Positions 9,260 through 47,759 of a DNA stretch of 64,000 nt are shown here, piece after piece. The notes under the pieces were generated by a model that was given only the letters and a program-made list of their open reading frames with translations, made no database searches and was not told the DNA's origin. The DNA lies in IMG/VR virus record IMGVR_UViG_3300017700_000409, positions 9,240 to 73,239 of that record, one strand, 5' to 3'. The first letter of the stretch is position 1; every line of letters starts with the position of its first letter. A program made the translations under genes and the position numbers. Source of the stretch: a virus. Taxonomy: Duplodnaviria > Caudoviricetes.

Positions 9260-9274
9260 AAAGGACACGGACAA

Positions 9275-10423: not shown

Positions 10424-10924
10424 ATGAACGCATATTGCAGAGTTGTTGATGGAAAGGGCACGGATGTATGCTATGGAGAAAACGCCGAATTAGCCATCAC
10501 CACTTCTTTTGTTACGGAATATATTGAAGAGGTTGGAGGTGTACCGGCTTGGCTCCCTATCCAAGATGGTGTTACGGTTAATGGCGGGTGGCTTGTTACA
10601 GTGACAGATGGTGTTGTTACAGCTTCGGTTGCCCCTTCACCTCCGCCACCCGTTCCGAAGACAATAAATAAGCAGGAATACAATGACGTTTGTATCGGGG
10701 CCTTGGGCGGCATCCCGGCTGGCGTTGCGGCATTCCAAGCGGTTATTGACGCTGCTGTTGCGGCCGGGGGAGCGGCCCGAGGAACTATCACTTATTACAA
10801 CGGAGCTAACACCTTCACTCTTCCCCAAACCCAAGCGTTCTTCGTTATCCTGGTTGACGCGCAATGCTGTACGCAAGAGCAAGCTGATGCGGTCATTGCC
10901 GCATGGCCTATGGTGGCTTCATGA
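10424..10924 (+). CDS. Hypothetical tail-associated protein
   Basis: Strong SD (GGAGG) before ATG; between the Gly-rich gene and the endolysin. Confidence 0.6.
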   Translation: MNAYCRVVDGKGTDVCYGENAELAITTSFVTEYIEEVGGVPAWLPIQDGVTVNGGWLVTVTDGVVTASVAPSPPPPVPKTINKQEYNDVCIGALGGIPAGVAAFQAVIDAAVAAGGAARGTITYYNGANTFTLPQTQAFFVILVDAQCCTQEQADAVIAAWPMVAS

Positions 10925-11367
10925 ACTCTGGGGATCGTGATACTATTCTCCTCGCTCTAACTGCCTATGGCGAGGCAAGCGATCAAGGCCGCGACGGTAT
11001 TCGGGCCCAAGTCCACTCTGTGCTTAATCGGCACAGGGCAGGGGCTTGGTACTCCCGTAAGACCCTCGCGGCTTGCGTAATGCTCGGCTATGCCTACTCG
11101 ATGTGGAATGACGATGATAAAAATAGGGTAAGGGTTTGTGAAGCTTCGCTTGACGATCCCACTATGAAAATCTGTATCGAAGAGGTTGAAGCGGCAATCG
11201 CAGGGAAGACCCAGGACCCGACCGGCGGGGCAACTCATTACTATGTCGCCGGCACTCCGGAACCAACCTGGGTTTCGGGCAAGAATAAGAAGGGGGAGCA
11301 AGTTGCTCCGCCCGCAACATACACAACAATGATCGGAGCACATCGTTTTTACAAGGGGGTAGCCTAA
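10921..11367 (+). CDS. Endolysin, cell-wall hydrolase SleB/Hydrolase_2 family
   Basis: LTAYGEASDQG, VLNR, TGGATHYY and IGAHRFY motifs; ATGA overlap with upstream stop. Confidence 0.85.
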   Translation: MNSGDRDTILLALTAYGEASDQGRDGIRAQVHSVLNRHRAGAWYSRKTLAACVMLGYAYSMWNDDDKNRVRVCEASLDDPTMKICIEEVEAAIAGKTQDPTGGATHYYVAGTPEPTWVSGKNKKGEQVAPPATYTTMIGAHRFYKGVA

Positions 11368-28608: not shown

Positions 28609-31572
28609 TCATCTAGCGGCAACCCGTTTCTCACTCTTCTTCGGCTTCTGGGCCTCGGGCTCCTTCTCCTGATCCTCTTGTTCGCCATTTTTACTCTCCA
28701 GCAACGCTGTGTTTACTTCTAGCTTGCGAACCTTCTCAACGAACACCATCCCATAGGTCGGGGCGTATTGTCCGCGAACAAGGTACCAATCCTCATCAAT
28801 AACCCCGTGCTCAACAATAGGCAGCGCCATCTCTTCGTAGGGTTGCCCCTTCTTAATTCGACACATCACGATCCCAGAGTCATCGGCAACCCGGAAGTTC
28901 AAGGCGAGCGTCGGCCCAGTCAACACCTTCCCGTTACGCTTTTGAACGCTGATCGTTTCATTCGCATCTCGCACGTTCTTAGTCTTTAGCTTCCCGAGGA
29001 ACACAATATTTTGATCTGGTTCCTGGTCGATGACCTCAAGTATTTTCCAAACATGCCCCCGTATCCCGAACTTCTCAGGGTCCTCATAGTATTCAGCAAA
29101 TAAAGTCTCAGCTTCAAAGATGTTATCGAAAGGCGTAACGGGGTTCTCTAGCTTCTTCGCGAGCCCCGCCGGAAGCTGGTATTGCCTCATCGCAACTTCT
29201 TTTACTTTTTTCTTCCCGACTTTTTTGACGATGTTTATTTCAGTGAGTTTTTTATTGCGCCAATCGATAATCTTTTGGGCGGCATTACCGCCGACACCCC
29301 GGATATTCGTAAGCCCTCCATATAGCACACCATTCTTAACAGCCCAGTTGATTTCAGACTTTTCCGCGTCAACGGGGATATATTTGAAACCTTCTTTGAC
29401 TAATTCGCGAAGTGTTAGAATGGTACTATCATCCCCCTTGGAGTTACGTAACTGAGCCGCTGCGTATTCAAGAGGAAACTTGCTTTTAAGAACACAGCAC
29501 CAGTAGGAGACATTTCCATAAGCCACAGCATGGCTTCGGTTGAAGCCGTAGGAGCCCATCGTACACATGTGATCCCAAACGTGCTGACTTTCCTTTTCGG
29601 TGAGTCCATTCTTCTTCGCTCCTTCCCAAAACTTCCCATAGTAGCCATCGAAGTATTCTTTGCCGAGGCTCTTGCCCATCGCTTTACGCAGCGCGTTGAC
29701 TTCTTCCCAGGTCAGATTGCCGATGTCTTTGGCGATCTTCATGACCTGCTCTTGATAGATAACAGTGCCGAAGGTCACTTTTGTGATAGGCTCGGCCATT
29801 GGGTGGAGGTACTTAACCGCCTTCTTACCCGTCCGGACGTTCACGAAGTCGCCTGCAGACCCTGAGACTAGCGGCCCGGGGCGCGCGAGAGCGGTTAAAG
29901 CGATGATGTCCTCGATGTTCTCCACCTTCATCTGCCGGCACAAGCCCTCGACCGCGCGCCCCTCGAATTGGAAGATGCCGGTCATGCGGCGCTTGTTGAT
30001 TACGTCAAAGGCCTTCTTATCGTCTAACGGATAGCTCTGGAGCCAGTGTATGTCCTTGCCTACGTGCTCCAAGGTGTCTTGTATCACAGATAGGGTCCGG
30101 AGGCCTAGTGCGTCAATCTTTAGAAGATTGATCTTAGCCGCGTCACGCCAGTCGACTTGCGCCACACCCGTCCGTAGGTCCACCGAACAATAATGGTTAA
30201 CCGGGTGCTGGGTGATAATAATTCCGGCCGCATGCTGCCCCGTATGGTTGGCGTGGTTCTCGATTTCTCCCGCGACCTTCATGGCGGGATACTTCTTGAT
30301 GAACTCGCGCCCCATTGTATTGTCGGTGAACGTATCCATAATACACAGCATCGCACGCGCGTCGCCCGAGGACCGCTTGAGCATCGCGGCCTTAAGCGCC
30401 TCAGTCTCTTTAATCGGCACCTTCAATTCTTTTGCGACATCGTTGATGGCGCTGTCCGACTTGTACCGGCTTATGGTTCCGATGCGGGCGATGCGGTTAC
30501 TCCCGTACTTCTCCTTGATGTAATCAAATACAAGCTCGCGCCTATCGTCCTGGAAGTCCACATCAATGTCGGGCAAGTCTGCGCGGCTAACGTCAATGAA
30601 CCTCTCGAAGAGGAGCCCATAGTGGATAGGGTCAATGTCCGTGATACCTAGAAGGTAGCAAGTCAAAGAGCCGCAAGAGGAGCCGCGAGCCGGTCCCACC
30701 ACCATATGTTGCTTCGCCCAGGCAATCATATCCGCCAATACAAAGAAGTAATCTTCAAACTTCTTATCCGAGATTAGCGTCAACTCGTTATGAAGCCGGT
30801 CACCATAAACCCTATTTTTCAAGTCAACCTTGCGGACCTTCGCGCCCTCGATACAAAGCTGGCGAAGCGTCTTCTTTGATTCAAACTTAACCATCTCCGC
30901 TTTCGGAAGCGTGACGTTACACTGATCATATAACTTCCCCGTCTCCTTGATAGCGGCCTCGGGGCACCAAGGTACATACACCCTCAACTCTTCCTCAGTG
31001 AGAATGTGAAAGCCCTCGGCAACGTTCTCCTTGAAGCGCGGGGAAATAATCTCATAGGCCCCATAATGCTCGGGACGGGGGTAGTAGTTATTTGAACCAG
31101 CGAGAGGCTTTAGGCCCCGCTCCATTGCTTGCTTGACGTTATACTCCTGGGCCCCGGGCGTTACGGCAACGTATGCCTTCGGCGGGGCCTTCCTCCAGTC
31201 TGTATCCGGGGCGATGACGATTAGGTTGGCCCAGTCTATCTCGTGTAGACCCAACCTGCTAAGCCGCCCCTTATCGTCCTCTGTGCTCTTCGTGGTTATC
31301 CGGTATATCTCCCGGAGCCCTACGTCATTGCGCGCTAGGAAGCGGTAGAAGTACACAGGCACCTTAGTCTCATGCGAGGTGTCCATGACCGGAAGCTCTA
31401 CGCCTAGGACGGGTTTCACGTTCGCCTTCTTCGCGGCATTGAAGAAGTCAACATGCCCCCACGTCCCAGCGCGGTCAGCGATGCCCACTCCACCAGCAGT
31501 GAGAACCTTAGAGGTTTGCCCGAAGGTGCTGCGATAGGAATATTCAGTGCGGCAGAATAGGTTTTTGAACAT
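28609..31572 (-). CDS. dnaE: DNA polymerase III alpha subunit (family C)
   Basis: PHP N-terminus (GVEL), GPARGSSCGSL, LLFERF, PDIDVDF, KIDALGL, YGFNRSHAVAY. Confidence 0.95.
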   Translation of the reverse strand: MFKNLFCRTEYSYRSTFGQTSKVLTAGGVGIADRAGTWGHVDFFNAAKKANVKPVLGVELPVMDTSHETKVPVYFYRFLARNDVGLREIYRITTKSTEDDKGRLSRLGLHEIDWANLIVIAPDTDWRKAPPKAYVAVTPGAQEYNVKQAMERGLKPLAGSNNYYPRPEHYGAYEIISPRFKENVAEGFHILTEEELRVYVPWCPEAAIKETGKLYDQCNVTLPKAEMVKFESKKTLRQLCIEGAKVRKVDLKNRVYGDRLHNELTLISDKKFEDYFFVLADMIAWAKQHMVVGPARGSSCGSLTCYLLGITDIDPIHYGLLFERFIDVSRADLPDIDVDFQDDRRELVFDYIKEKYGSNRIARIGTISRYKSDSAINDVAKELKVPIKETEALKAAMLKRSSGDARAMLCIMDTFTDNTMGREFIKKYPAMKVAGEIENHANHTGQHAAGIIITQHPVNHYCSVDLRTGVAQVDWRDAAKINLLKIDALGLRTLSVIQDTLEHVGKDIHWLQSYPLDDKKAFDVINKRRMTGIFQFEGRAVEGLCRQMKVENIEDIIALTALARPGPLVSGSAGDFVNVRTGKKAVKYLHPMAEPITKVTFGTVIYQEQVMKIAKDIGNLTWEEVNALRKAMGKSLGKEYFDGYYGKFWEGAKKNGLTEKESQHVWDHMCTMGSYGFNRSHAVAYGNVSYWCCVLKSKFPLEYAAAQLRNSKGDDSTILTLRELVKEGFKYIPVDAEKSEINWAVKNGVLYGGLTNIRGVGGNAAQKIIDWRNKKLTEINIVKKVGKKKVKEVAMRQYQLPAGLAKKLENPVTPFDNIFEAETLFAEYYEDPEKFGIRGHVWKILEVIDQEPDQNIVFLGKLKTKNVRDANETISVQKRNGKVLTGPTLALNFRVADDSGIVMCRIKKGQPYEEMALPIVEHGVIDEDWYLVRGQYAPTYGMVFVEKVRKLEVNTALLESKNGEQEDQEKEPEAQKPKKSEKRVAAR

Positions 31573-31761: not shown

Positions 31762-32091
31762 CTAAGCGAGCAGATGCCAGCCGCGCAAATGTAGTTGCTT
31801 TTTCTCGCGTCTATGAAGAATGTAAACGTTCCATTCCTCTGTATCAAAATAAGCTTCACGCAAAAGATTTATGCCCGCGAGAACGTCTGCGATTTCATCG
31901 GCAACCCAAACGCGGTTTACCTTCTGAGTAACCGGCTCACGCTCATCGATCCCTTGTATAATACAGCGAGCCAACGCAGATTGAAGCTCTCCAAGCTCCT
32001 CGATTAGTTTGCCTAACTGTTTCAGTGTAACCGGGTCCGTAATAGGATGCCACGGGTTTGCTGGCTTTAGATCATCTACATCAATCGGCAT
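31762..32091 (-). CDS. MazG-like NTP pyrophosphohydrolase
   Basis: KLIEELGEL...DEIADV (ExxE...ExxD) all-alpha motif. Confidence 0.75.
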   Translation of the reverse strand: MPIDVDDLKPANPWHPITDPVTLKQLGKLIEELGELQSALARCIIQGIDEREPVTQKVNRVWVADEIADVLAGINLLREAYFDTEEWNVYILHRREKKQLHLRGWHLLA

Positions 32092-32092
32092 C

Positions 32093-32347
32093 TCACCCTC
32101 TCTTTTCTCTGTAACCATTTGTTGCGCAAAAATGAGTAAAGTCCAAAGTCTTTAATTTATTAACATAATCTGCTTTTGACCTCCAAAGAGATGGGCATTT
32201 TTCACATGTAACAGAACTATAACGACTTGGTGAAAAACGGTAACCATTGAAGGCGGACCTGTTGCCGTTTCTTTCGACAACCCACCAGCGTCTTTTTTCT
32301 AATGGTTTGTTTCTCTCTTTGCAATTACAAACTGCTCCGCCACTCAT
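32093..32347 (-). CDS. Hypothetical Cys-rich protein
   Basis: CNC and CEKC motifs; AT-rich. Confidence 0.55.
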   Translation of the reverse strand: MSGGAVCNCKERNKPLEKRRWWVVERNGNRSAFNGYRFSPSRYSSVTCEKCPSLWRSKADYVNKLKTLDFTHFCATNGYREKRG

Positions 32348-33222
32348 TTTCTATTCTCCAGAATATGGAAGTAACAACGAGCGCAGGCAATAACATCAGG
32401 TGTGGCGCGGTGAGCCGGGAAGCCTTCGCCAAAGAGATGCTCGTGAAGTTGAGTTAGCGTCATTCTATGGCCCTTGATATCCATACTCATCTGAACTGTA
32501 TCAACAACCGTTAACGGCCAAGGGAACCCTTCCGCCCCAACTCGCTTAAGTTCAAACCCGAGCATTTGAAAATCAAACCAAGGATTGTGACCGACAGCGC
32601 GGCGTACACCCCAGAACAATTCTTTGAGCGTCGGGAGGTAGGTGATGAACTTCGGTTGATCCTTTAGCATCTCATCTGTGATGCCTGTGATCTTCGGGAT
32701 ATTCGGAACCCTTGAGTTGTTAGGATCACCTTTAGGAAGGAGGAAGCCGGGGTTAATAAGAAACTCAACATGCTCAACCTCCTTCTTCCCCTCGAATATT
32801 GTACCAGAGAACTCAATGACGGACGGCTGAAGGTTTAGGTCAACAGCGCCATTAACAGGAAGGCCTGTTGTCTCAGTGTCAAACACCAGCGTCAGGTCGG
32901 GCTTTGCGATCTGCTTTTGAACCTTCCGTTGTACGCCTATCACCAGCGGTACGTTTGCGTCGGCAATCGAAGCGGATGCGGAGGATACGGATGCGCCTGT
33001 CTTCTCCCGAGCGGCCCCGGGCTTCGCGCCCGCTGTCCCAGAGACGGCGCGATCCTTCCCTGGCGTTTCCCGGGAAACCAACTCCGATTTCTTCTGCTCC
33101 GCGCCTTTCGCCTTTGCGCTCATCTCTTGCTTTTGCTTCTTCACGCTTTTCTTCTTCACCACAAGAGCACTCACGCTGCGCCTCTTCAACTGCTGCATCC
33201 GCATATTCCCCGTTCTCGACAT
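32344..33222 (-). CDS. DEDDh 3'-5' exonuclease (DnaQ/epsilon-like); start uncertain
   Basis: VFDTETTGL (ExoI), GHNPWFD (ExoII), HRATPD (ExoIII). Confidence 0.85.
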   Translation of the reverse strand: MSRTGNMRMQQLKRRSVSALVVKKKSVKKQKQEMSAKAKGAEQKKSELVSRETPGKDRAVSGTAGAKPGAAREKTGASVSSASASIADANVPLVIGVQRKVQKQIAKPDLTLVFDTETTGLPVNGAVDLNLQPSVIEFSGTIFEGKKEVEHVEFLINPGFLLPKGDPNNSRVPNIPKITGITDEMLKDQPKFITYLPTLKELFWGVRRAVGHNPWFDFQMLGFELKRVGAEGFPWPLTVVDTVQMSMDIKGHRMTLTQLHEHLFGEGFPAHRATPDVIACARCYFHILENRK

Positions 33223-33553
33223 TGTCTAGCTCCTGTTGTATTGCCCAGTAGACGATTGAATCAATTGCGCTGTCTTCGTGCCCGCCTGTATTAAAGTTCT
33301 TACAATAGCGAGAGAGCTTGCTTATGATGTTGAAGAGATTAGATGCCCTCGCAAAATCCCCTTCCGTCTCTAGTTTCAATCCGGACGGGAACAATACTTT
33401 CAGCATAACCCCGAAATATTCATAGTTGTTCCCATACTCGCGGTTTTTCTCTTTGAACATTTCGATTGCGCATCTCATTACCGCAACGGGATTGTGAATA
33501 TTCACCTCTTTCATCGCCTTAACAAACTCCGGATCAGGCCGATTCATTTGCAT
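32879..33553 (-). CDS. Nucleotide-modification-associated domain 1 (Nmad1/DUF1599-like) all-alpha pyrophosphatase
   Basis: KNREYG, KLSRY and DSAIDSIVY motifs in first about 110 aa; C-terminal tail overlaps the exonuclease frame. Confidence 0.6.
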   Translation of the reverse strand: MQMNRPDPEFVKAMKEVNIHNPVAVMRCAIEMFKEKNREYGNNYEYFGVMLKVLFPSGLKLETEGDFARASNLFNIISKLSRYCKNFNTGGHEDSAIDSIVYWAIQQELDNVENGEYADAAVEEAQRECSCGEEEKREEAKARDERKGERRGAEEIGVGFPGNAREGSRRLWDSGREARGRSGEDRRIRILRIRFDCRRKRTAGDRRTTEGSKADRKARPDAGV

Positions 33554-34097
33554 TGATCCTTATGCAAGCTTTGAAATCGAAGCCCAGTGCCTCGCGGCTC
33601 CCGAAGATAATATTATGGTAGGTGCGCTTGCCGGCAATAATCGGGTTGGTGTGCTTGTAGGAGGTGTCTTCCCAGACGGGGTGTATATCTCGCTGCCCAA
33701 GATGAAAACGCCAATCCTTCCCCTCTTCCTCTGTGCAATGAATTCCGAGATGGCTTATGAAAGGCATATCCACACCCATGCTTCCGAGTTTTTCATAAAG
33801 GCTCGGAGCATAGAGGCCCAGTGGAGATATTCCACGGTTTGAAACAGAGTGGAAATTGTGAAGCGAAAGGAACTGGATCAACTCCAACTCCTTAAAAGGA
33901 ATGTCTTGCTCATAGTTATAGAACAGTTTGAACTCAACTTCCTTGGGCTCCGGATAACCGGCAACAACCGCTCTGCTATAAGCGTGGTCGTGAGACCATG
34001 TTGATCCGCCAATCCACTTCATCAAAGTAGATGGGAACCGCGTGGCGATAGCGAGTTGATCGAAGTCCGCTTCACGCCCAAAAATATTCATCTTCAT
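33534..34097 (-). CDS. VOC/glyoxalase-fold-like protein
   Basis: DQLAIA, ELELI and SHLGIH segments match metal-ligand positions of VOC modules. Confidence 0.45.
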   Translation of the reverse strand: MKMNIFGREADFDQLAIATRFPSTLMKWIGGSTWSHDHAYSRAVVAGYPEPKEVEFKLFYNYEQDIPFKELELIQFLSLHNFHSVSNRGISPLGLYAPSLYEKLGSMGVDMPFISHLGIHCTEEEGKDWRFHLGQRDIHPVWEDTSYKHTNPIIAGKRTYHNIIFGSREALGFDFKACIRINANESA

Positions 34098-34231
34098 AGT
34101 TCTAAGTCTCCATCGCAATCGCCAATTGAACCTTTTTCATTCGCCTCGCGCTCTTTCTTAGCGTCCTCGGGCGTCCAACCCGCTTCAATTAATCTTTGCT
34201 CAAACTCATCACACGACATGTCCTTACCCAT
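34094..34231 (-). CDS. Small acidic hypothetical protein (45 aa)
   Basis: MGKDMSCDEFEQRLIEAGWTPEDA...; fills gap between SDR and VOC genes with ATGA overlap. Confidence 0.45.
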   Translation of the reverse strand: MGKDMSCDEFEQRLIEAGWTPEDAKKEREANEKGSIGDCDGDLEL

Positions 34232-34233
34232 CT

Positions 34234-34995
34234 CTAGGCTCCATACGGAATGATACAGCCGGTTAGATACTTATGCCGCTCTTTGTTCTGGAGGAGGAAG
34301 GCAATGAACTCAGCGACTGCCTTCGGGGGTGTCGGAACCCCGTTGGGGATCATGGATGCTTGCTTAGCTTCCGCCTCTTCCTCTGTCCAGCCCCGGAGCC
34401 CCGGGACTTGGGACTTCACTGAATTACTAATCCCCGTCCCCTCTAGGACGTTCGGAGCGATAGCGAACACATCGATGCCGTGCCTCGGCTTAAGCTCGCG
34501 GGCCATTTGCCGCGTCATCATGTGAACTGCGGCCTTACTCGCGTTGTAGATGTGGGTGCAGGTCATCGGTGTCCAGGCCGCTGTGGAGCCGATGTTGATA
34601 ATTGTGCCGCCTTCAGACTTATCGAATGGGCGATACTTGCGGCCGTCCGGTCCTCGGGCCGACAGATAGGGGATAGCCGCCCGGGTCATGTTGAAGATGC
34701 CCTTGCAGTTTGTATCCATAATCGCATTCCAGTCTTCGTCTTTGGCGTTCTCGATAAAGCTGAGCGGGGAAACTCCTGCGCAGTTGATGAGCACGTCAAT
34801 CGAGCGTTTGCGTTTCTCTCCTGGAGGACAGTGATGATCAAGGAACGCTTCGCAATCAATCGGGCTTCTCACATCATATACAGGATATGAGAAATCCAAA
34901 ACTTCATGTGTGGTCTGGGCGTTGTCTCCTTGAAGCGCAAATTTAATCTCTTGACCAAGGCCGCTGGACGCTCCGGTGATAACAATACGACTCAT
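34234..34995 (-). CDS. Classical short-chain dehydrogenase/reductase (SDR)
   Basis: TGASSGLG, NCAG, GSTAA and YNASK catalytic motif. Confidence 0.9.
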   Translation of the reverse strand: MSRIVITGASSGLGQEIKFALQGDNAQTTHEVLDFSYPVYDVRSPIDCEAFLDHHCPPGEKRKRSIDVLINCAGVSPLSFIENAKDEDWNAIMDTNCKGIFNMTRAAIPYLSARGPDGRKYRPFDKSEGGTIINIGSTAAWTPMTCTHIYNASKAAVHMMTRQMARELKPRHGIDVFAIAPNVLEGTGISNSVKSQVPGLRGWTEEEAEAKQASMIPNGVPTPPKAVAEFIAFLLQNKERHKYLTGCIIPYGA

Positions 34996-35453
34996 TTAAA
35001 AAACTCCTGTCTGTAGAGAAGGGCGGGGATGCCGTTCATGTTGAATGCGTTCGCAACGTCTTTCCGGTCTTCGATGATTAGAGAGGCCTTTGCTATGGGT
35101 TTGAAATCTCCAAGAAATTGAGCGTACATCTTCATCTTTAGAACAGGCGACGTGTCTTCATTCCCGTAAGGACGCATGAAAACGGCATCTTGCGGGATGT
35201 TGGCGGCTTTTATCTGCTCAATAGTTTCGTTGCGGTACTCCTCGGAACGGGCCGTAAAGATGATGGAGTTGTTATCGAGAGCGAAAGCCCGCGCCACCAT
35301 TACCATTTGCGGGATAGGAGGGGCTACGAGTTGGAACCTTACAACCGCGTCATAGTCCTTTTTGGCGTAAGCCTCCTTGGAGACATCCCGGAACTTAAAC
35401 AAAACACCATCCAGGTCCCAGATGATTGATGTTTTAAATTTTAGCGGCGGCAT
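34992..35453 (-). CDS. HAD-family phosphatase (T4 PNK phosphatase-like)
   Basis: WDLDGV motif I, FTAR motif II, K and IIEDR motif IV. Confidence 0.8.
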   Translation of the reverse strand: MPPLKFKTSIIWDLDGVLFKFRDVSKEAYAKKDYDAVVRFQLVAPPIPQMVMVARAFALDNNSIIFTARSEEYRNETIEQIKAANIPQDAVFMRPYGNEDTSPVLKMKMYAQFLGDFKPIAKASLIIEDRKDVANAFNMNGIPALLYRQEFFK

Positions 35454-35807
35454 CTTTTGTTCCTTTCTTACAGGCTTTAGGGTCTGGAGACCAACGGGTG
35501 AATACTGACTTTGTATTACAAGATGAAGCGACCCGTTTTTGTTCAAAGGCGCAGTTAACACAAACCCGGTGTTCGTCCGTTGGATAGCTCCAGGCGTGCG
35601 CTACATATACAGTTGGCTTCCGCGCCATCACACGCCCTCCTCAGGCGGTTGCTTCTCACAATGGTTAGGATCGCCAATTACAGCAATTTCATTTGGGGTG
35701 GCGGAACAATATTTACAAAGCATATTTCCGCCATGACCTAGGTTTGCATATTTAAATTCATGAGGACCATACTTCGCCCGCTCCTCTTCCGGCTTCCAAG
35801 CGAACAT
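35434..35807 (-). other. Two small Cys/His-containing ORFs (35434-35631, 35628-35807)
   Basis: Overlapping start/stop codons inside the operon; CxxC motifs. Confidence 0.45.
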
Positions 35808-36535
35808 TAGCCAATCTCCTGACGGGCGCGGTCAATATCCTTGAGCGCATCGACAGCCAGAGTGGTGTCTTGGTTCCGGAACTTCGCAATGAACGCCTCG
35901 ACCTTATCGAAGACACCCCGGCCCCTCGGGAATAGGAACTGCTCCGCCCAGGGGTGGACATCGAGAATAGCGGAGTGCATAGCCGCTAGAACCTCGCGGT
36001 ATTCGTCCTGGACCCGTCCGCCCGTCCGCTTCCGGGCTAGCTCCGACATTGTGCGGAGGTTGAATTTAGCGACAAGGTTGGTGTGGATGTTTAAAGGAAG
36101 GACGCCCCGGGCATCTTCCGCCGGCACTCCCATAGCAATCATATCATTATAACCTTCGCGAATTTTATCCATTGTGCGCTGATAAATCCCGAATTGTTCT
36201 CTCATCATCAGAGGGACAAGAGACTTCGGCACAACGTAAGTGAATGCCGCATTGATAAGCATCCGCAACGTTTGTTGAGCATAGGAGCCTTGGCGCGTCC
36301 TTACGAGTTGATTGGCGAAGGCGCGGCTCACGTCCGTAATCAAGAAGACATAATCACAGAACTCCCAAGAGCTAGGGATTGTGCGGCTCATATACTTGAG
36401 GCCTTCGGCCTTCTCCTCTTCCGACATCGCCTGTATCTTCTCGAAAGTATCCTTGCCAAGCGTCAGCCGGGTTTCCTTTGTGAAGAGAAGAAGGTCAACG
36501 GCACCGTGAGTGTAGTTAATCAGTTCAACTTTCAT
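35807..36535 (-). CDS. thyX: Divergent flavin-dependent thymidylate synthase homologue
   Basis: SRAFANQLVRTRQGSYAQQTLRM aligns to the ThyX motif; ARGVLP, NLR and RKR retained. Confidence 0.8.
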   Translation of the reverse strand: MKVELINYTHGAVDLLLFTKETRLTLGKDTFEKIQAMSEEEKAEGLKYMSRTIPSSWEFCDYVFLITDVSRAFANQLVRTRQGSYAQQTLRMLINAAFTYVVPKSLVPLMMREQFGIYQRTMDKIREGYNDMIAMGVPAEDARGVLPLNIHTNLVAKFNLRTMSELARKRTGGRVQDEYREVLAAMHSAILDVHPWAEQFLFPRGRGVFDKVEAFIAKFRNQDTTLAVDALKDIDRARQEIG

Positions 36536-36541
36536 TTCCTA

Positions 36542-37483
36542 TTATCCTTTCTTTACGATTTCTTTGATCATTCCATAGCGGTCTTTTTGTCCAATCATCT
36601 TATCAACAAGTTGGACATCTTGTACAACATCATCAAGGAGTATCTGCCTCCAAGTCGCGAAACGCCCCACAGAGTAAATCCCAAACTTCTCAGTCGCATA
36701 AAGAATGAATGAGCGGCGCACCTCATCATCGACCGAAAGAAGCTTACCAAACTTCTGGGCCTTTACTCCTTCAACTTTTACCTGCGCACCTTCGATCCCG
36801 AAAACTTGCTCAAGCAACGGGTGTATACGCCACCCGCCCTTATCCACCCCCTCAGGGTCAGAAACATATTCGAGCGTTAAACGGCTCCCCGTTATCGAAG
36901 CCCGATACAAAGCAATATCACTCTCGGGAAAATAAACAGTTTGGTACAAATCAATATCGGGGCTCTCAATGGTAATCGTCTTTGTCCATATCTTCTTCGC
37001 CTCAAACTTCACCTGAGGCTCAACCCCGAGAATGTTAGCTAAAGCCGGCATTGGGATGGTGCTAATAAGCGGCACAGAGCCATCGCCATGGACTGCAAAC
37101 TCTTCTAGCCCAGTTCCATAGACAATATTAACACCTTGCGCGAGCCGCTTTAGAAAGTCGGGAGGTGCGATGTACCGCTCGGCTGGCGCGAGGTTGAGGA
37201 TGCTGCGGCCTGTCGCGCGCCCCGATACCTTAAGCGAATACTGATTGTTGTGTTGAAGCGTGCCCGTAGTCCGGAGGCGCTTACCATCCCACAATCCTTT
37301 TTGAACAGCCACCTTCTTAAAAGCAATCCCCGTTGCCTCGGCCACTGCGTTAGTTCGGAAGCGGAGGAGAGCGGCGTGGTTGTCGGGTAAGCTCGGCTGA
37401 AGTTCGTGTATGACGGGGGAACGGTTTTTCAGAATGTGTGCGGTTAGCAGGCCAGCCATCCCGGCCCCGAAGATTTTTATCAT
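36542..37483 (-). CDS. FAD-dependent oxidoreductase, UDP-galactopyranose-mutase/PPO-like
   Basis: GAGMAG dinucleotide fold with terminal Glu; C-terminal GRFATWRQILLDDVV resembles the Glf GRL..Y.Y.DM..V motif. Confidence 0.65.
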   Translation of the reverse strand: MIKIFGAGMAGLLTAHILKNRSPVIHELQPSLPDNHAALLRFRTNAVAEATGIAFKKVAVQKGLWDGKRLRTTGTLQHNNQYSLKVSGRATGRSILNLAPAERYIAPPDFLKRLAQGVNIVYGTGLEEFAVHGDGSVPLISTIPMPALANILGVEPQVKFEAKKIWTKTITIESPDIDLYQTVYFPESDIALYRASITGSRLTLEYVSDPEGVDKGGWRIHPLLEQVFGIEGAQVKVEGVKAQKFGKLLSVDDEVRRSFILYATEKFGIYSVGRFATWRQILLDDVVQDVQLVDKMIGQKDRYGMIKEIVKKG

Positions 37484-37567: not shown

Positions 37568-38359
37568 TTACTTGCTGACGCGGACGTACTTTTTGCGGAC
37601 AGCGAGGCCTTGAAGGTCGTTGAGCGTTCCGCCCTTCTTCAAGAAGTCCTCATAAGTGATGCCGGGCTTGTCGAGGACGATCTGCATGCACTTGTGGCGC
37701 TGCCCCGGCTTGCCGGCGAACATCGGGTTGCAGGGGTTCTCCTTCTCGATGGGGTAGAGCTTTGCGGTGGGCTCGTAGGGCGACTTGCGGCCCGCGCCAC
37801 TCGGAGCGGCCTTCTTCGCGGCTCCCTTCTTGGCCGGGGCCTTCTTCGCGGACTTCTTGGAAGCAGTCTTTTTGGTAGCAGCCATTTCAGTATCCTCTTC
37901 TTCGCTTTTGGTTTCCGTCTCCTCCGGATTGGTGGAGCGGTCTCTGTCTGTAGCGGGGTTGTAAGGCTCGGGCCCGGTATTTTTCAACTCGGGGTAATCG
38001 GCCTCACGCACCTTCGATTTAGCAACACTGACTTCAAGCGGCTCTTCATCGTCCTTGAACTTCGGGATTTTGAAACCAGCCGCCTTCTCAAACATTTCTT
38101 CATCGAATGCTTTTTTCACCTTCGGGTACACATCCATCAGGTAGCGAGGGAACGGCTTGAGTTCCTTCCCGGTGAAAAAGGTGTAGAGTGCCTTGAGTTG
38201 GTTTGGAGAGAGTTTCTCAATGGCAGCGTCTTTGTTTTCCAGAACGACAAACATTGTATTGCCTCGACCCTGTTGGGCGCAGGCTTGAACGATTGTCGCG
38301 TTGTTACCCTTGACGGCATAACGAACCTTAAAATTCCAAAACTGGACGCCAAAGATCAT
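37568..38359 (-). CDS. DNA-binding protein with histone-H1-like segment; probable internal start at 37885
   Basis: MAATKKTASKKSAKKAPAKKGAAKK preceded by GAGG SD; C-terminal GITYEDFLKKGG domain. Confidence 0.65.
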   Translation of the reverse strand: MIFGVQFWNFKVRYAVKGNNATIVQACAQQGRGNTMFVVLENKDAAIEKLSPNQLKALYTFFTGKELKPFPRYLMDVYPKVKKAFDEEMFEKAAGFKIPKFKDDEEPLEVSVAKSKVREADYPELKNTGPEPYNPATDRDRSTNPEETETKSEEEDTEMAATKKTASKKSAKKAPAKKGAAKKAAPSGAGRKSPYEPTAKLYPIEKENPCNPMFAGKPGQRHKCMQIVLDKPGITYEDFLKKGGTLNDLQGLAVRKKYVRVSK

Positions 38360-40606: not shown

Positions 40607-41812
40607 CTAATCGCCCCTCAAGATTTTACCTAGTTCAGACTCAGGGCTAACAATCTTCTTCATATCGTCAATAATTCTTTGATTTCGCACTGCTCTGTCT
40701 CTCCACTCTTTTAAATCAAAAACTAAAATTTCAAGCTCGTCAGCAGAGAGCCTTAAGTCATTAGCAATTTTACTCGCAACATCAGAATTCCATTTAGGGT
40801 CGCTTACCATCTCAAGGCCCTCTGTCGTCCGTTTCTAAAATATGAATTCGTTCGTGCATCCAACTTTGAACATTCGGGTTCGCTTCCAGGTTTTGAATAT
40901 CCAAGGCCGTAAGTTCCCGGACAACTTGCCCTGAAGGTTGAACAATAAAGCCGCGAAGGTTCTTCACCTCAGGGTCTTCATCTTTATAAGCAATTTCATA
41001 ATCAAAAGTCAGATTTACATACTGCCCGCGCGACAAACTGATCCCCGTCGGCAACGGGGAGTTGTCTATTTTGATTGTTGTAGTCGGCATCTCAGTTCCC
41101 CTTCTCTAACAAAACTTCACGGTCATTGTCGAAGAGGCGAAGCCCCGAGAGCTTGCCCCAGTATTGTGATCCGTCAAACCACACTCTCTTTTTGTCCGGG
41201 TTCTTGATCTTCGATAGTAGCTTCATTAGTTCTAGCACTGTGAGATGCTTCTTGTTCTGGTCGAATACCGCCTGCCCATAGTCCTCTTCGCCTTTCGCTA
41301 GAGGCTTAGGGGATGTTGCCGGCATATCCGAACGCCCGTGGAGCTTGGTGAGTTGATCTTTACTTAATTTGTTGTCGCGCTTCGATGCGAAGAACTCTAG
41401 GGGCTTTAATTGCTTCTTCCCTATCTTCGACACCTTTGCCTTAAGTTGCTTCGACATCGCTATCTGTTTCATCGTTTTCGCTTCCGATAGCTTTTGCTTC
41501 ACTTTGGATTTTGTCGAGTTCTTCATATTCGTCTTCTTCGACATTTGGAAATTCCTTTGCCTCTTTCTCGATTGCTTCGGCGCAGGAGAAACACATCATA
41601 GGCAAATCGTCCTCGACATGTACCCCGCGCAAATGGTTACCGCAAAAATATCCTTCGCAAGCGCCATCAGGCCCGACCCCGTGCATCCCGCCGCAAGCGT
41701 AGGATAAGCCCCGGTCAATAGTCTCGGTACAACCTGGGTGGTCGCAGAAGGCCTCGATGGCGTAACCAATCTTGCGGCCCTTGCTGTCCTCTCCGCAGTT
41801 AGCCCAGCCCAT
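40607..41812 (-). other. Four small hypothetical ORFs (40607-40810, 40812-41090, 41092-41457, 41441-41812)
   Basis: Tandem ORFs; last is Cys/His-rich (CDHPGC, CxxxH, CFSC). Confidence 0.55.
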
Positions 41813-42479
41813 TGATCTTCTCCTTCTTCACCTTCCAGTTTGGGTGGCTATTTGCACCTAGAAACTTTAAGGCGCTTTCTTCATCTGGAAAACTTTTTGC
41901 CTTGTGCTGGTGTGCTGTAGGTGTATCGTTGCCGCAGCTATCTAATCCCTGCCTTATATACACTCCGGTTATTTCGTTTCTGATATAATATCTTTCTTCC
42001 TCTCTCGCCATATCAATCCCAATCCAGTGAACGGCGATTATGGGCTGTATCTCCCATTCACGCCCCATAGCTTTCCACCTCTCCTCAGAGTCAGAGTGGT
42101 TCGGGTAGGGTGCCGCAGCAACGATGCGCTTAGCGTTAGGAAGAGCAATCAACATATCCACGCAGAATTTGCAGGGCGACACCGTCACATAGATCGTGTG
42201 TACCCGGCTCGGGTCCGTACAATGCGCTAAGGCATTTACCTCGGCATGAATAGCCTTACATTCCGTCAACGCAGTCCCGCTCGGGGCGTCCGCTCCCTTA
42301 CAAGGGAACCCTTCGTTACAGTGAGGCTGGCCCTTAGGCACGCCATTGCGGCCGGTCGAGAGGATGTGCCCGTTCTCATCTACGAGAACGCACCCGACCG
42401 AACGGCGGATACAAGTAGAGCGTTTCGAGGCTACAGCAGCGTGCTCTAGGTTCGTTTGGTCTTCTGTAGGGCGGTTCAT
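41799..42479 (-). CDS. dCMP deaminase family protein with C-terminal extension
   Basis: STCIRRSVGC, HAEVNAL and SPCKFC zinc motifs. Confidence 0.85.
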   Translation of the reverse strand: MNRPTEDQTNLEHAAVASKRSTCIRRSVGCVLVDENGHILSTGRNGVPKGQPHCNEGFPCKGADAPSGTALTECKAIHAEVNALAHCTDPSRVHTIYVTVSPCKFCVDMLIALPNAKRIVAAAPYPNHSDSEERWKAMGREWEIQPIIAVHWIGIDMAREEERYYIRNEITGVYIRQGLDSCGNDTPTAHQHKAKSFPDEESALKFLGANSHPNWKVKKEKINGLG

Positions 42480-42667
42480 CTCACAATCCTTTTTGATCCT
42501 GATTCCCATTGCTTCTCTAACTCTTTCATAAAGGCATATGGTGGGCTTTGTACTCCTGTTATGTATTGTCTAAGCAAATCATCGGAGCAATTAAGGACAT
42601 CCATAACCTTTGCGAATTTATCCGGATCAGCAACAAGCTTGAGAAGTTGGTTCTGGTGAACGCTCAT
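42476..42667 (-). CDS. Small HTH protein
   Basis: LNCSDDLLRQYITGVQSPP XRE-like helix pattern. Confidence 0.5.
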   Translation of the reverse strand: MSVHQNQLLKLVADPDKFAKVMDVLNCSDDLLRQYITGVQSPPYAFMKELEKQWESGSKRIVR

Positions 42668-45058: not shown

Positions 45059-47193
45059 TCACATATCACCAAGCCTCTCACGCGCATTCCAGATAAGTTC
45101 ACGAAGCTCATTCATTTTAGGATCAGAAAATTTGCCGTTGTGACGGGCTTCTGTGAATGCTTTAAGCATAACACGAGTTACACCTTCAGCGCCATTCACG
45201 TGTCCTCGCCACCAAGCCGGATGCGCTCCATCTGTTGAATCAAGCTCCGGGTTATTGGCCTCTAGCAGTTTCTTATTCGAGGCTTGTAACAATTCAATTG
45301 CCTTCTTCTCCTTACCCGGGCAAACAATATCGCAATCCAACTGACAAAATATATCATTCTCTTCATGTATCTCGCAAACCTCAGGAGAGACGCGAGATAA
45401 AAGCGCGCGGGTTATCTTCTCGAAATAAGGGTCAGCGGCTTGTGACGCCTTGCTCAATTTTGCAGCGGCCAAAAATTTGAGGGCGTTGTTACAAAGTTTT
45501 ATGAGTTCTTCATCTGTTGTAGTGGGGCTATTCACTTGTCTGCCCCTTTTCATCTTCCACAGTTCCTATTCCCACATTGGGTTTAACTATCTCCCGCGCG
45601 AAATTCTCGGCAATGTGCTTATCGATATAGACCGGGATTTCACCAAAGGCCGTTTCCTCATCGTCCTTAAACCGGATGGGAACCCGAAGGATCGCATCTA
45701 CAATATTCTCAAACGAACGGGCGGACGGCCAATGATCGATAACAACAGTGAAGCTTCCGTCATCTTCTTTATCAACCTTAAGGATCGGAGCAGTAGTTGT
45801 TCCGATTGCCTCACCGCACTTTGTGTAAAATTGAGCGTTAATTACAGGGAACTTATGCTCAACAAGCAAGTCCGCTTTCTCAAGCCTGTCAATAAGCATT
45901 CCAATCGGAAGCGAGTTGGATAGACCTAGCTCCCGCGCGAATGTAAAGGCAATAGAGCGGGCCGCAGAAATAGCGTTACAATCCTCTGGTGCTTCCTTTC
46001 CTTCTGCCTCCTTCCTCCTCTCAGCTAGCTCCTTGCGCGTCATCGGGCGGGTAGAGCAATTAGCCGAGTGGTGAATGTGGCACCGCCCTAGCTCCGCACA
46101 AACGTGTAAAGGGCAAGGGGGCCTCTTCGCTTTCTTATCAGACATCTTACGCACTCCCTTTCGTTTCCATCAATCCAGCAAGGATTTGAGCATTACCTCG
46201 CTCAACATTTTTCGCCACAACCTCTAAGACTTGAGCAGAGGTGTACTGCCTTTGATCTTGAAGCGCAGTCAACTTTCCCACGACATTCGAGGCTATCGCA
46301 AGAAGCTCTATTGCATTCACTTTGTCCTTGTGCTTATTCATCAAATTCAAAATATCTTGGTAAGCTATCTCATGCTCCGGCTTAGCTAGATAATCGCCCA
46401 TTAGTGTAACCTTGTCCCGAGAGGAACAACTTGCGGATCAAGTTCATTCCACTGATCAATAGGCATCCAGTAAGGCTTTCCAAAGTTCTCCTTCCCGGTG
46501 GCGAAATACTTTATGCAAAGAACACCATCGTGCGGCTCGGCTCCCTGGGGCTCGTAGGGCTGGGGCGGGAGGGCTGTGGCGACAGGAATAGGCGAAGGAG
46601 TAGGGGCGGGAGAAGGCGCATCCTCTATAACATCGATACGCTCCGCCATATCATCTTCTGTCATCCCAAACACCTTCCCATCCGGCATCCGCAAAATATA
46701 TTCCCCGGGCTCAAACAGGTTCGTCTTCAAAGTCTCATTGCCCCTGATCATAAGGCACCAAAGCTCAGTCATCGGAACAGGGAGGATCGCAATAAATCGA
46801 AGGTTCACCCAAGCCGGGGCCGTAGACAGATCAAGCTGCTTCCCCGTCCACTTAAAAATATCAACGGGGAGGGGTTTAAGGCGATAACTCATTTCAGTGT
46901 TCCTATTTGTTTGATGGCTTCTTAGATGTAACAACGTGCTTGGGCGGGTTGGAGGGGATATACACGCCACCTACGCTGCGCTGGTTCGTCCCGGGTATAC
47001 AACCTCTATCATCCCGGTCCACCTTCTCTTTATCAGTGAAGATGGCTTTAGAAAAAGAAACACCCAGAGAAATACCAATCATAATTCCGAGAGCCCAGAA
47101 GATAACAAAGTCATTCTTCCAGATCCCAATGACGATGTACCTATCAACGAAAAAATAAAGCGACAGGATACAGGCGATGATTAAACCGATCAT
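45059..47193 (-). other. Hypothetical ORFs (45059-45553, 45528-46145, 46147-46401, 46401-46892, 46903-47193)
   Basis: Tandem ORFs with SD; last has two TM segments. Confidence 0.55.
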
Positions 47194-47759
47194 TTTGATT
47201 GGCTCCCTTTCAAGTGATCGCGAGTGTAGGGAATAAGCTTAGCGGCCCCTCGGATATACAAGGGGTGCTTGGGTGTGCCGTCTGAGTTGATGGTAAGACA
47301 ATGGGTCCAGGGTTTAGTTTCCCAGACATACTCAAGAACAACCCCATCTTGCGCGAGGAGCTTACCGTCCAAGCCCCACCCGAGGATTATAGCATCAGCC
47401 TTGCGCAAGGTCTTGGCTAGCTGGTCCCAGTACTCGGGGCCGATGATGTCCTTGTCGTAGCGAACAGCCCGCAACTCCTCGCGGGAGGAGGTACGATAGG
47501 CGAAGAGGTTGGCGACAACGAGACGGTTGGAGCCGTTCATCTTCGCGAAGGAAACGCACCGGCGAATAGTCGGGTCATCTTCGGTGGCGTCTGCTGTGCT
47601 CGGATTGAGCATAATAAAGAGGGTTGTCTTGGGTTTTGGCGCGGGGTCCGTCTTACGGATGCGCGGGGGCAGAGCCCACTCACGCGTCAACTCATATCGG
47701 TAATGCTTGCAATTCGATATGATTGCGCTGGTAGCGGTATATAGATTTTGCTTCGTCAT
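47190..47759 (-). CDS. DUF1643 family protein
   Basis: YRYELTR, FIMLNPSTAD..DDPTIRR, NLFAYR, GWG and PKHPLY motifs. Confidence 0.85.
   Translation of the reverse strand: MTKQNLYTATSAIISNCKHYRYELTREWALPPRIRKTDPAPKPKTTLFIMLNPSTADATEDDPTIRRCVSFAKMNGSNRLVVANLFAYRTSSREELRAVRYDKDIIGPEYWDQLAKTLRKADAIILGWGLDGKLLAQDGVVLEYVWETKPWTHCLTINSDGTPKHPLYIRGAAKLIPYTRDHLKGSQSK

Follow-up and report, generated by a model that had tools for sequence, protein, structure and literature searches.

The thymidylate synthase of the flavin-dependent family (ThyX) has been described for Thermotoga maritima (TM0449), where His53 stacks the folate pteridine and is H-bonded by Tyr91 and Asn85. The same source describes Tyr91 and Ser88 as critical and strictly conserved; mutation of Tyr91 slows the enzyme 1000-fold (PMC11940539). 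ThyX also accepts a free aldehyde, formaldehyde, by way of a flavin N5-carbinolamine (PMC8316439). From phages, the D29 orthologue of mycobacteriophage L5 gp48 has been characterised as ThyX (PMC6999906). Here we explore a ThyX-like gene at positions 35807-36535, minus strand, of a 64-kb window of the complete 73,239-bp record of an uncultured virus with direct terminal repeats (IMGVR_UViG_3300017700_000409; unless stated otherwise, positions are those of the window). The product has the ThyX fold, lacks the family's signature residues and is encoded directly behind a second flavoprotein that resembles UDP-galactopyranose mutase (UGM, or Glf). We give about even odds (0.5) that this member of the ThyX family has changed its function and serves a thymidine-modification cassette in a non-methyl or non-folate role; an ordinary thymidylate synthase dependent on methylenetetrahydrofolate (CH2-THF) is unlikely.

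Phage thymidine hypermodification as known from M6, ViI, SP10 and PhiW-14 starts with a hydroxymethylase of the ThyA family (PF00303) that acts on deoxyuridine monophosphate (dUMP), and goes on with DNA-level kinases of 5-hydroxymethyldeoxyuridine (5-hmdU) and transferases of the aGPT-Pplase type (PMC8989533). The system proposed below would be like these pathways in having variable tailoring enzymes and a phage-encoded C5 transfer that acts on dUMP in the nucleotide pool, but would differ in its use of the unrelated ThyX family together with a UGM-like flavoprotein. No 5-hmdU kinase or aGPT-Pplase-type transferase was listed in partial PHROG and Pfam scans of the window, for which no search by family was made. 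Recruitment of the ThyX family to a secondary pathway with altered substrate use has a precedent in PolB (PMC5954106), although PolB still methylates with folate. UGM is known to form a covalent adduct between flavin N5 and sugar C1 (title of PDB entry 5hhf), chemistry that would suit the role proposed here for the second flavoprotein, and eukaryotic UGMs bind NAD(P)H directly (titles of PDB entries 5vwt and 5vwu).

Residue pattern of the ThyX-like clade

The 242-aa product was matched by Pfam family PF02511 (Thy1) over residues 5-196 with an E-value of 8e-31 and 107.7 bits (cut-off 24.8), as well as by PHROG families named thymidylate synthase. A structural model was made with AlphaFold2 from 29 homologues and had a mean predicted local distance difference test (pLDDT) of 89. 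Since the best Foldseek matches in the PDB were all ThyX structures, with T. maritima ThyX at a TM-score of 0.7-0.79 and approximately 21% identity, the product is a true ThyX-fold protein. It has a core of similar size to TM0449, followed by a C-terminal extension of two helices (approximately residues 205-242) that T. maritima ThyX lacks. Unlike TM0449, it is also paired with a second flavoprotein.

A profile of the clade was aligned to T. maritima ThyX PDB chains, in which chain numbering equals native numbering plus 12, and this gave an unambiguous register. Five positions are lost or changed (given as query = T. maritima): I53=H53, T80=H79, A86=N85, T89=S88 and M92=Y91, with W57=F57, E58=E58 and F59=H59 around position 53. 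Where canonical ThyX has the signature RHRxxxxxxxS, with His79 and Ser88, the query reads RTRQGSYAQQT; Ile53 takes the place of the aromatic residue that stacks the folate (His, or Tyr in STSV1), and Met92 that of Tyr91, the proposed general acid. Kept are R79=R78, R81=R80, S84=S83, Y85=Y84 and R91=R90 and, in the C-terminal half, R143=R147, N159=N163, R161=R165 and R170=R174, where also R174=H178. Fold, R-x-R motif and the complete dUMP and flavin adenine dinucleotide (FAD) ligand set of TM0449 (R78, R80, R90, R147, R165, R174, Q75 and N163) are therefore shared by the two proteins. Because this set of Arg, Gln and Asn ligands is conserved, FAD and dUMP are most likely still bound in the classical pocket.

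An earlier note, made from the letters of the window alone, had given residues 79-92 as RTRQGSYAQQTLRM and residues 53-58 as IPSSWE, and both strings are exact. It had read the motif as changed from His to Thr, Ser to Thr and Tyr to Met, which the profile alignment places at T80, T89 and M92, and it had rightly noticed that the Arg residues binding FAD and dUMP remain (R79, R81, R91, R143, R161 and R170). Its statement that His53 stacks the folate in Thermotoga ThyX agrees with PMC11940539, where Ser88 is called critical. It had further proposed that the enzyme binds FAD and a pyrimidine nucleotide but uses a donor other than CH2-THF. The first half stands as probable, from ligand conservation and the similarity to the ThyX fold; the second is a hypothesis backed indirectly by the loss of the triad, the synteny with a Glf-like gene, the sugar-type neighbours and the sugar-bearing thymidines of Pbunavirus, all treated below.

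A search of the whole library returned 84 clade-type representatives with an E-value of at most 1e-30 and 513 with at most 1e-10. Residues were counted in the 120 nearest homologues and in a set of 80 representatives taken from clusters of 50% identity at E <= 1e-30. All 120 nearest homologues conform to the consensus R[TSN]R..SYAQQ[TS].R[VMLIK], with I or V at position 53, T, S or N at 80, A at 86 and V, M, I, L or K at 92. Among the 80 representatives, position 53 is I, V or L in 77, Asn in two and a gap in one, and never His or Tyr; the position of Asn85 is Ala; that of Tyr91 is V, T, I, A, M or L, with Tyr in a single sequence. At the position of Ser88 we counted S 37, T 25 and A 18 times, so the hydroxyl itself is not kept across the clade. 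His53, Asn85 and Tyr91 form an interacting triad, and all three were lost together, with the hydrophobic residues I-A-V/M as their replacement across the clade. The eight ligand residues, in contrast with the lost ones, show 100% conservation among the 120 nearest homologues, a figure that is 91-100% among the representatives (N163 equivalent 73/80, R90 equivalent 75/80), and the invariant residues particular to the clade include K20, R23, W57 and R174. By these alignments the pattern is far beyond chance, a trait of the clade and not a one-off.

For comparison, the canonical phage ThyX of Clostridium phiCP26F, Bacillus Mgbh1, STSV1, Synechococcus phage ACG-2014b and mycobacteriophage L5 (gp48, with its D29 orthologue) retain RHR...S.R[YF]. 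Their upstream segment ends in LEH or FEH, except in ACG-2014b (FEQ), and position 53 as aligned by MAFFT is Tyr in STSV1 and His in the other four; in the hidden Markov model (HMM) alignment behind the tree, the column of position 53 is gapped for three of the five. A FastTree phylogeny of 118 sequences, rooted on L5 gp48, placed 108 tips in one clade with SH-like support of 0.95 and every canonical ThyX outside it. The clade includes the query, the Pbunavirus and Wifcevirus "thymidylate synthases" (among them those of PB1 and ECML-117) and three actinophage proteins named ThyX-like. The tree supports a single origin of the residue loss, short of proof because the sampling favours the query and the root was chosen. 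Matches in the phage database separate the clade (E <= 1e-31) from the next ThyX proteins (E >= 1e-16).

The three actinophage "ThyX-like thymidylate synthases" in the divergent clade are from Gordonia phage Djokovic, Mycobacterium phage Gumball and Microbacterium phage Krampus. They are 366-440 aa long, read R(Q/T)R...ES.RF and are without His53 and His79.

It is very improbable that the protein acts on some other compound, such as dCMP, UMP or a nucleotide sugar, or that it has lost catalysis and is kept as a scaffold for contacts between proteins of the replication complex. In favour of such readings, several of the catalytic residues are gone, and a ThyX paralogue with relaxed substrate choice is known: PolB, from the biosynthesis of polyoxin, methylates UMP as well as dUMP (PMC5954106). 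However, the Arg set that binds uracil and phosphate is under strong purifying selection, K20, R23, W57 and R174 are invariant, and the ligand residues are nearly invariant over more than 80 clusters at 50% identity, which is unexpected for a dead enzyme. Inteins tend to occupy functionally important proteins, and their presence inside Thy1 in some members, shortly before model position 71, likewise argues against a dead protein. The interrupted clade members are P0347 (637 aa) and P0323 (428 aa), and their C-terminal Thy1 segment resumes at model position 71, upstream of R-x-R. The N-terminal extensions of the longer clade members showed inteins and a weak Pam3_gp59 match, and no informative domain.

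The UGM-like partner and its association with the ThyX-like gene

The stop codon of the partner gene lies 6 nt before the ATG of the ThyX-like gene. Its 313-aa product was matched by no Pfam family at an E-value of 0.01; it has more than 1,200 homologues, all from phages, and none of the 120 homologues listed carries a Pfam domain. An AlphaFold2 model (pLDDT 88) has the UGM fold with an FAD-binding Rossmann domain. VIA Z-scores were a near tie between Aspergillus fumigatus UGM (19.5; root mean square deviation 4.0 over 294 residues), protoporphyrinogen oxidase (18.8) and monoamine oxidase (17.5), and Foldseek ranked renalase and UGMs first. The partner profile matched PDB chains of UGM with E-values of 0.7-1.7, which is insignificant; at an E-value of approximately 1 its motifs ISTxP, Y.PE..YRA and GRFxxWR align to UGMs. 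With UGM the protein thus shares the flavoprotein fold, the conserved-Arg (YRA) motif and a C-terminal GR(F/L)xx(W/Y) segment. It differs in being shorter than the matched bacterial UGM chains (361-367 aa), in having no Pfam match and in that protoporphyrinogen oxidase and the amine oxidases are within approximately 1-2 Z units. With respect to a helical UDP-binding domain as in UGM, the helices of the model at residues 76-152 are all short. Judged from the model, UGM-like is the best label, family membership not being established.

Synteny was studied in 84 loci from IMG/VR and cultured phages anchored on the ThyX-like gene, and in 79 loci anchored on the UGM-like gene. In 76 of the former the UGM-like gene is upstream on the same strand, and the eight exceptions have less than 2 kb of upstream DNA. 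Conversely, the ThyX-like gene is downstream, at a median distance of 260 nt, in 77 of the 79, and both exceptions have less than 500 nt of downstream DNA. In the cultured-phage collection the records of the two proteins agree in phage genus and in number (Pseudomonas 292, Escherichia 27, Serratia 9 and Xanthomonas 6). The separate clade co-occurring with the Glf-like gene, for which the earlier note had suggested looking, was therefore found in both directions (76/84 and 77/79), with a tree support of 0.95.

Further enzymes, which vary with the lineage and seem interchangeable, are encoded within the pair or between it and the polymerase. A carbamoyltransferase of the NodU/CmcH type (570 aa) stands between the UGM-like and ThyX-like genes in three IMG/VR loci, and Vibrio phage vB_ValP_VA-RY-3 has a sulfotransferase-like protein between the ThyX-like gene and the exonuclease. 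A classical short-chain dehydrogenase/reductase (SDR; Table 1) was found by tblastn in 47 of the 84 ThyX-anchored loci, or 48 by a separate clustering count. Reductase, carbamoyltransferase and sulfotransferase are typical tailors of sugar hydroxyl and keto groups, and a plain thymidylate synthase operon leaves them unexplained.

Sugar-type thymidines and the possible functions

In the Pbunavirus phages PB1, F8 and 14-1 the cassette consists of ORF65 (UGM-like), ORF59 (ThyX-like) and ORF57 (HAD-DUF6378), then exonuclease and polymerase. ORF59, annotated as "thymidylate synthase complementing protein", is in the same clade with the same losses; in PB1 it reads RTRTGAYQQETSRA and TI-RSPFEF. Wifcevirus coliphages carry the cassette as well (ECML-117 gp78, gp80 and gp77 as counterparts of ORF59, ORF65 and ORF57). 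Both groups have the gene order of the window (UGM-like, ThyX-like, HAD, exonuclease, DnaE), and their counterparts are approximately 37-42% identical to those of this phage. They differ from it in the fusion of HAD to DUF6378, which are separate open reading frames (ORFs) here, and Pbunavirus is without the pair of SDR and VOC-like protein present in the window, the SDR not being detected at an E-value of 1e-15.

In virion DNA of F8 and 14-1, about a quarter of the thymidines, in TG context, are reported to be replaced by novel nucleosides that derive from thymidine and have masses of 362 and 390 Da; they were described as derivatives of a tetrose sugar alcohol and of a cyclised aldopentose (2025 preprint, PMC12191111). 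The authors of that study found Pbunavirus to be without recognisable modification genes and assigned none, and we found no later paper that assigns genes to the modification. The ThyX-like/UGM-like pair is a testable candidate for the pathway behind this sugar-bearing thymine. By arithmetic, 362.3 equals deoxyuridine (dU) + pentose + 2H - H2O, and 390.3 equals dU + hexose - H2O; these masses fit those expected for alkylation of C5 by the C1 of an aldose, with and without a final reduction. When the 16-kb region was compared between F8 and 14-1, ORF57 was at 79% and ORF58, ORF60 and ORF61 at 78-82%, against 94-99% for most other proteins. The divergent ORF57, ORF58, ORF60 and ORF61 adjoin the ThyX-like gene (45.9-48.5 kb of the record), and the modifications of F8 and 14-1 are reported to be different.

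If the role of the ThyX-like enzyme has changed, the carbon-donor side of its active site would have been rebuilt from His53-Asn85-Tyr91, the triad that in T. maritima stacks the folate pterin, gates the site and helps dehydrate the flavin N5-carbinolamine, to Ile-Ala-Val/Met. The enzyme would act as one half of an obligate pair with the UGM-like flavoprotein encoded immediately upstream, and the cassette would be completed by the HAD phosphatase, the DUF6378 protein and lineage-specific tailors, here the SDR and a possible VOC-fold protein. Reduced flavin N5 may capture the aldehyde or anomeric carbon of a sugar (as phosphate or nucleotide) in place of the methylene of CH2-THF. The captured carbon would then be passed to C5 of dUMP, as in the formaldehyde/carbinolamine route of ThyX, with a 5-(sugar-derived alkyl)-dUMP as product. 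The side chain would be dephosphorylated, and the product tailored, phosphorylated and used by the DnaE-type polymerase of the phage. Such a cassette would supply the genetic basis that is missing for the hypermodified, sugar-type thymidines of Pbunavirus DNA. Only tentatively do we go further and propose a new two-flavoenzyme system that joins C5 of dUMP to the C1 of an aldose by a C-C bond, as the pathway of the Pbunavirus sugar-thymidines. Here a flavin N5-sugar iminium or carbinolamine would replace the N5-methylene of ThyX, and 5-(polyhydroxyalkyl)- or C-glycosyl-deoxyuridine nucleotides would be placed in DNA by a dedicated DnaE-type polymerase.

The same masses would also follow from a flavin-dependent dUMP hydroxymethylase, which would take one carbon from CH2-THF or formaldehyde and release the exocyclic-methylene intermediate to water, giving 5-hydroxymethyl-dUMP. 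After incorporation, a pentose or tetritol made available by the UGM-like, SDR and HAD enzymes would be attached to 5-hmdU by O-glycosylation or as an ether: 5-hmdU + pentose - H2O gives 390.3 and 5-hmdU + tetritol - H2O gives 362.3. Every known thymidine hypermodification begins from 5-hmdU (PMC8989533), post-replicative glycosylation would account for the TG context, and without Tyr91 and His53 the final hydride transfer might become uncoupled, although the loss of His53 also argues against an unchanged folate site. We nevertheless hold such a hydroxymethylase improbable. The other three quarters of Pbunavirus thymidine are reported as canonical T and not 5-hmdU, and therefore a second source of dTMP or a reduction step would be needed. 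A weaker point is that partial Pfam and PHROG scans of the window ORFs, not searched by family, yielded no glycosyltransferase or 5-hmdU DNA kinase family.

Several observations weigh against a changed, non-methyl or non-folate role, and some of these would be expected of a genuine dTMP synthase. In that case the folate/NADPH side would have been rebuilt, the partner may be a dedicated NAD(P)H-dependent reductase that keeps FAD reduced, CH2-THF may be bound in another mode or free formaldehyde used, and HAD, SDR and the others would be unrelated neighbours in a replication module. No other thymidylate synthase-like gene was found in six carrier phages, namely this phage, PB1, ECML-117, RHph_Y65 (207 kb, with ribonucleotide reductase and dUTPase), a Ralstonia phage and a complete IMG/VR phage: the ORF studied here is the sole Thy1 match of its genome, and ThyA (PF00303) had no match in this genome or the five other carriers. 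The gene is in a replication and nucleotide block, adjoining the DnaE and DnaQ genes and with a dCMP deaminase nearby, as a plain dTMP synthase would be, and its ligands for dUMP and FAD are all conserved. T. maritima ThyX mutated at His53 (H53A) was crystallised with folate bound (title of PDB entry 4gtf), and therefore the loss of His53 alone need not abolish the use of folate. For the partner, the binding of NAD(P)H by eukaryotic UGMs (5vwt, 5vwu) and an equally good Foldseek match to renalase, an NAD(P)H-related flavoenzyme, agree with a reductase. We still consider a dTMP synthase doubtful, since Tyr91, strictly conserved and with a mutant 1000-fold slower (PMC11940539), is absent, and 18 of 80 representatives have Ala in place of Ser88. 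Moreover, L5/D29 gp48, the phage ThyX that has been characterised, retains every canonical residue, no canonical ThyX requires a partner flavoprotein, and neither the insertions of carbamoyltransferase, SDR and sulfotransferase-like genes in the pair or cassette nor the source of the Pbunavirus sugar-thymidines would be explained.

The remaining points against a changed role concern the pathway itself. O-linked structures of 5-hydroxymethyl-dU meet the reported masses equally well, so that mass alone is indecisive. The TG context points to a sequence-specific step at the DNA level, beyond a mononucleotide enzyme, and no DNA-level enzyme for such a step was among the genes found, which is the main gap in the pathway model. 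Two separate FAD sites leave the transfer of the sugar carbon between the flavoproteins unexplained. The UGM-like partner was not detected in the genera of the actinophage clade members.

On balance, a changed function is favoured by the joint loss of residues held essential, the second flavoprotein, the tailoring genes and an orphan modification in carriers of the cassette. If the function has changed, the label "thymidylate synthase" is wrong in hundreds of phage records (approximately 360 in the collection searched), including those of Wifcevirus coliphages and of the PB1-like phages in wide use for Pseudomonas therapy. It would extend flavin N5-carbinolamine/iminium chemistry from one-carbon to sugar transfer, and would give a genetic handle on the DNA hypermodification that governs sensitivity to END nucleases and resistance to restriction systems. 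Should the C-C bond be real, the pathway would be present in more than 1,000 phage lineages. If the enzyme instead proves an ordinary dTMP synthase, His53, His79, Ser88 and Tyr91 would be shown dispensable, despite their use as signatures of the family and as anchors of its mechanism. Carriers include cultured, genetically tractable phages that grow on laboratory strains, so the question is directly testable.

Other genes of the cassette and its surroundings

Table 1. Genes discussed in the text, with their positions in the window.
Feature	Position	Strand	Basis and remarks
DnaE-type (family C) DNA polymerase	28609-31572	-	PF07733, E 1e-67; PF17657, E 4e-43; co-inherited with the cassette
DnaQ-like 3'-5' exonuclease	32344-33222	-	PF00929, E 7e-17; phrog_192; Lys/Ala-rich N-terminal region
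DUF6378-type small helical domain protein	33212-33553	-	N-terminal 114 aa of a 224-aa ORF (32879-33553)
194-aa accessory protein, possible VOC/glyoxalase fold	33534-34118	-	invariant His, Glu, His; no Pfam or PHROG match
Classical SDR, accessory tailoring gene	34234-34995	-	PF00106, E 1e-33; overlaps the HAD gene by 4 nt
HAD-superfamily phosphatase, PNKP/GmhB type	34992-35561	-	PF25109 (HAD_PNKP), E 1.5e-5, just under the curated cut-off; phrog_415, E 4.6e-16
ThyX-like flavoprotein	35807-36535	-	242 aa; PF02511 match, AlphaFold2 model, Foldseek
UGM-like flavoprotein partner	36542-37483	-	313 aa; phrog_4828, E 9e-68; N-terminal GAGMAG Rossmann motif
263-aa Lys/Ala-rich protein	37568-38359	-	no family match
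dCMP deaminase	41799-42509	-	phrog_174, E 1e-35
DUF1643 protein	47190-47759	-	PF07799, E 4e-33

The true start of the HAD phosphatase is probably an internal Met directly ahead of the DLDGV motif. A tblastn search with this protein returned nothing at an E-value of 1e-10; an iterative HMM over the loci recovered homologues, which in 70 of 85 loci come directly after the ThyX-like gene, and the domain is also part of PB1 ORF57 and ECML-117 gp77. Positions 35562-35806 form a gap of approximately 245 nt between the stop of the ThyX-like gene and the HAD gene (approximately 350 nt when counted from the internal Met) in an otherwise tight operon, and no promoter or terminator consensus was found in the 350 nt.

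In the same two proteins, PB1 ORF57 and ECML-117 gp77, the HAD phosphatase is fused to the DUF6378-type domain. The C-terminal domain of 14-1 ORF57 matched the separate ORF of the window with phmmer at an E-value of 1.3e-9, and matched ORFs in 70 loci; this ORF also matched phrog_4889 (E 6e-12), and seven of 16 members of the family matched PF19905 (DUF6378). A relationship of the domain to the nucleotide kinase gp1.7 of T7 was considered and rejected (hhalign probability 0.1%). Only the first 114 aa of the 224-aa ORF resemble a genuine protein; the remainder runs, out of frame, across the Lys/Ala-rich N-terminus of the exonuclease ORF. The ends of both genes are therefore putative, and a frameshift is conceivable. 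In Vibrio phage VA-RY-3 (21101-22521 of locus L097) the HAD phosphatase is fused to a C-terminal domain that matched PHROGs named nucleotide kinase, with a weak match to DUF3310, and the sulfotransferase-like protein comes next.

Outside the window, the SDR was found in Wifcevirus, Serratia and Xanthomonas phages, and 30 Gordonia phage records match it at E <= 1e-15. The 194-aa protein was found in 33 of 84 loci by tblastn, or 40 by a clustering count with separate criteria, and accompanies the SDR in the loci inspected, without a formal tally. The best PDB match of its family profile was a protein of the lactoylglutathione-lyase family (3gm5), weak at an E-value of 0.14, and it had no usable Atlas match. 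Positions 31762-32118 had no meaningful PDB match.

The DnaQ-like exonuclease is present in 62 of 84 ThyX-anchored and 66 of 79 UGM-anchored loci and is co-inherited with the cassette. When this phage was compared by blastp at an E-value of 1e-5 with two 40-kb phages, one of Ralstonia and one of Vibrio, only polymerase, exonuclease, ThyX-like and UGM-like proteins were common to all three. The dCMP deaminase is the likely source of dUMP for the ThyX-like enzyme. The 16 kb surrounding the gene had no megablast match in the phage collection, and therefore this phage has no close cultured relative there.

The 263-aa protein is encoded between a UvrD-like helicase and the UGM-like gene. It has a Lys/Ala-rich, histone-H1-like middle, and takes the same position as ECML-117 gp81 ("TolA protein") and PB1 ORF66.

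The DUF1643 protein was considered as a DNA-level partner and rejected, being absent from PB1, ECML-117, RHph_Y65, the Ralstonia phage and a further carrier (G001). Its homologues are found in 148 phage records (among them LKA5-like Pseudomonas phages, Caulobacter phages and actinophages), a distribution unlike that of the cassette. In two of the three loci with the carbamoyltransferase (L074 and L078) this gene is at 8221-9930 in the same layout. A pyrimidine-dimer glycosylase like T4 endonuclease V (PF03013, E 3e-15) directly follows the ThyX-like gene in 22 loci, for instance at 10870-11232 of locus L068; it may act as a DNA-level component, or it may serve only in repair.

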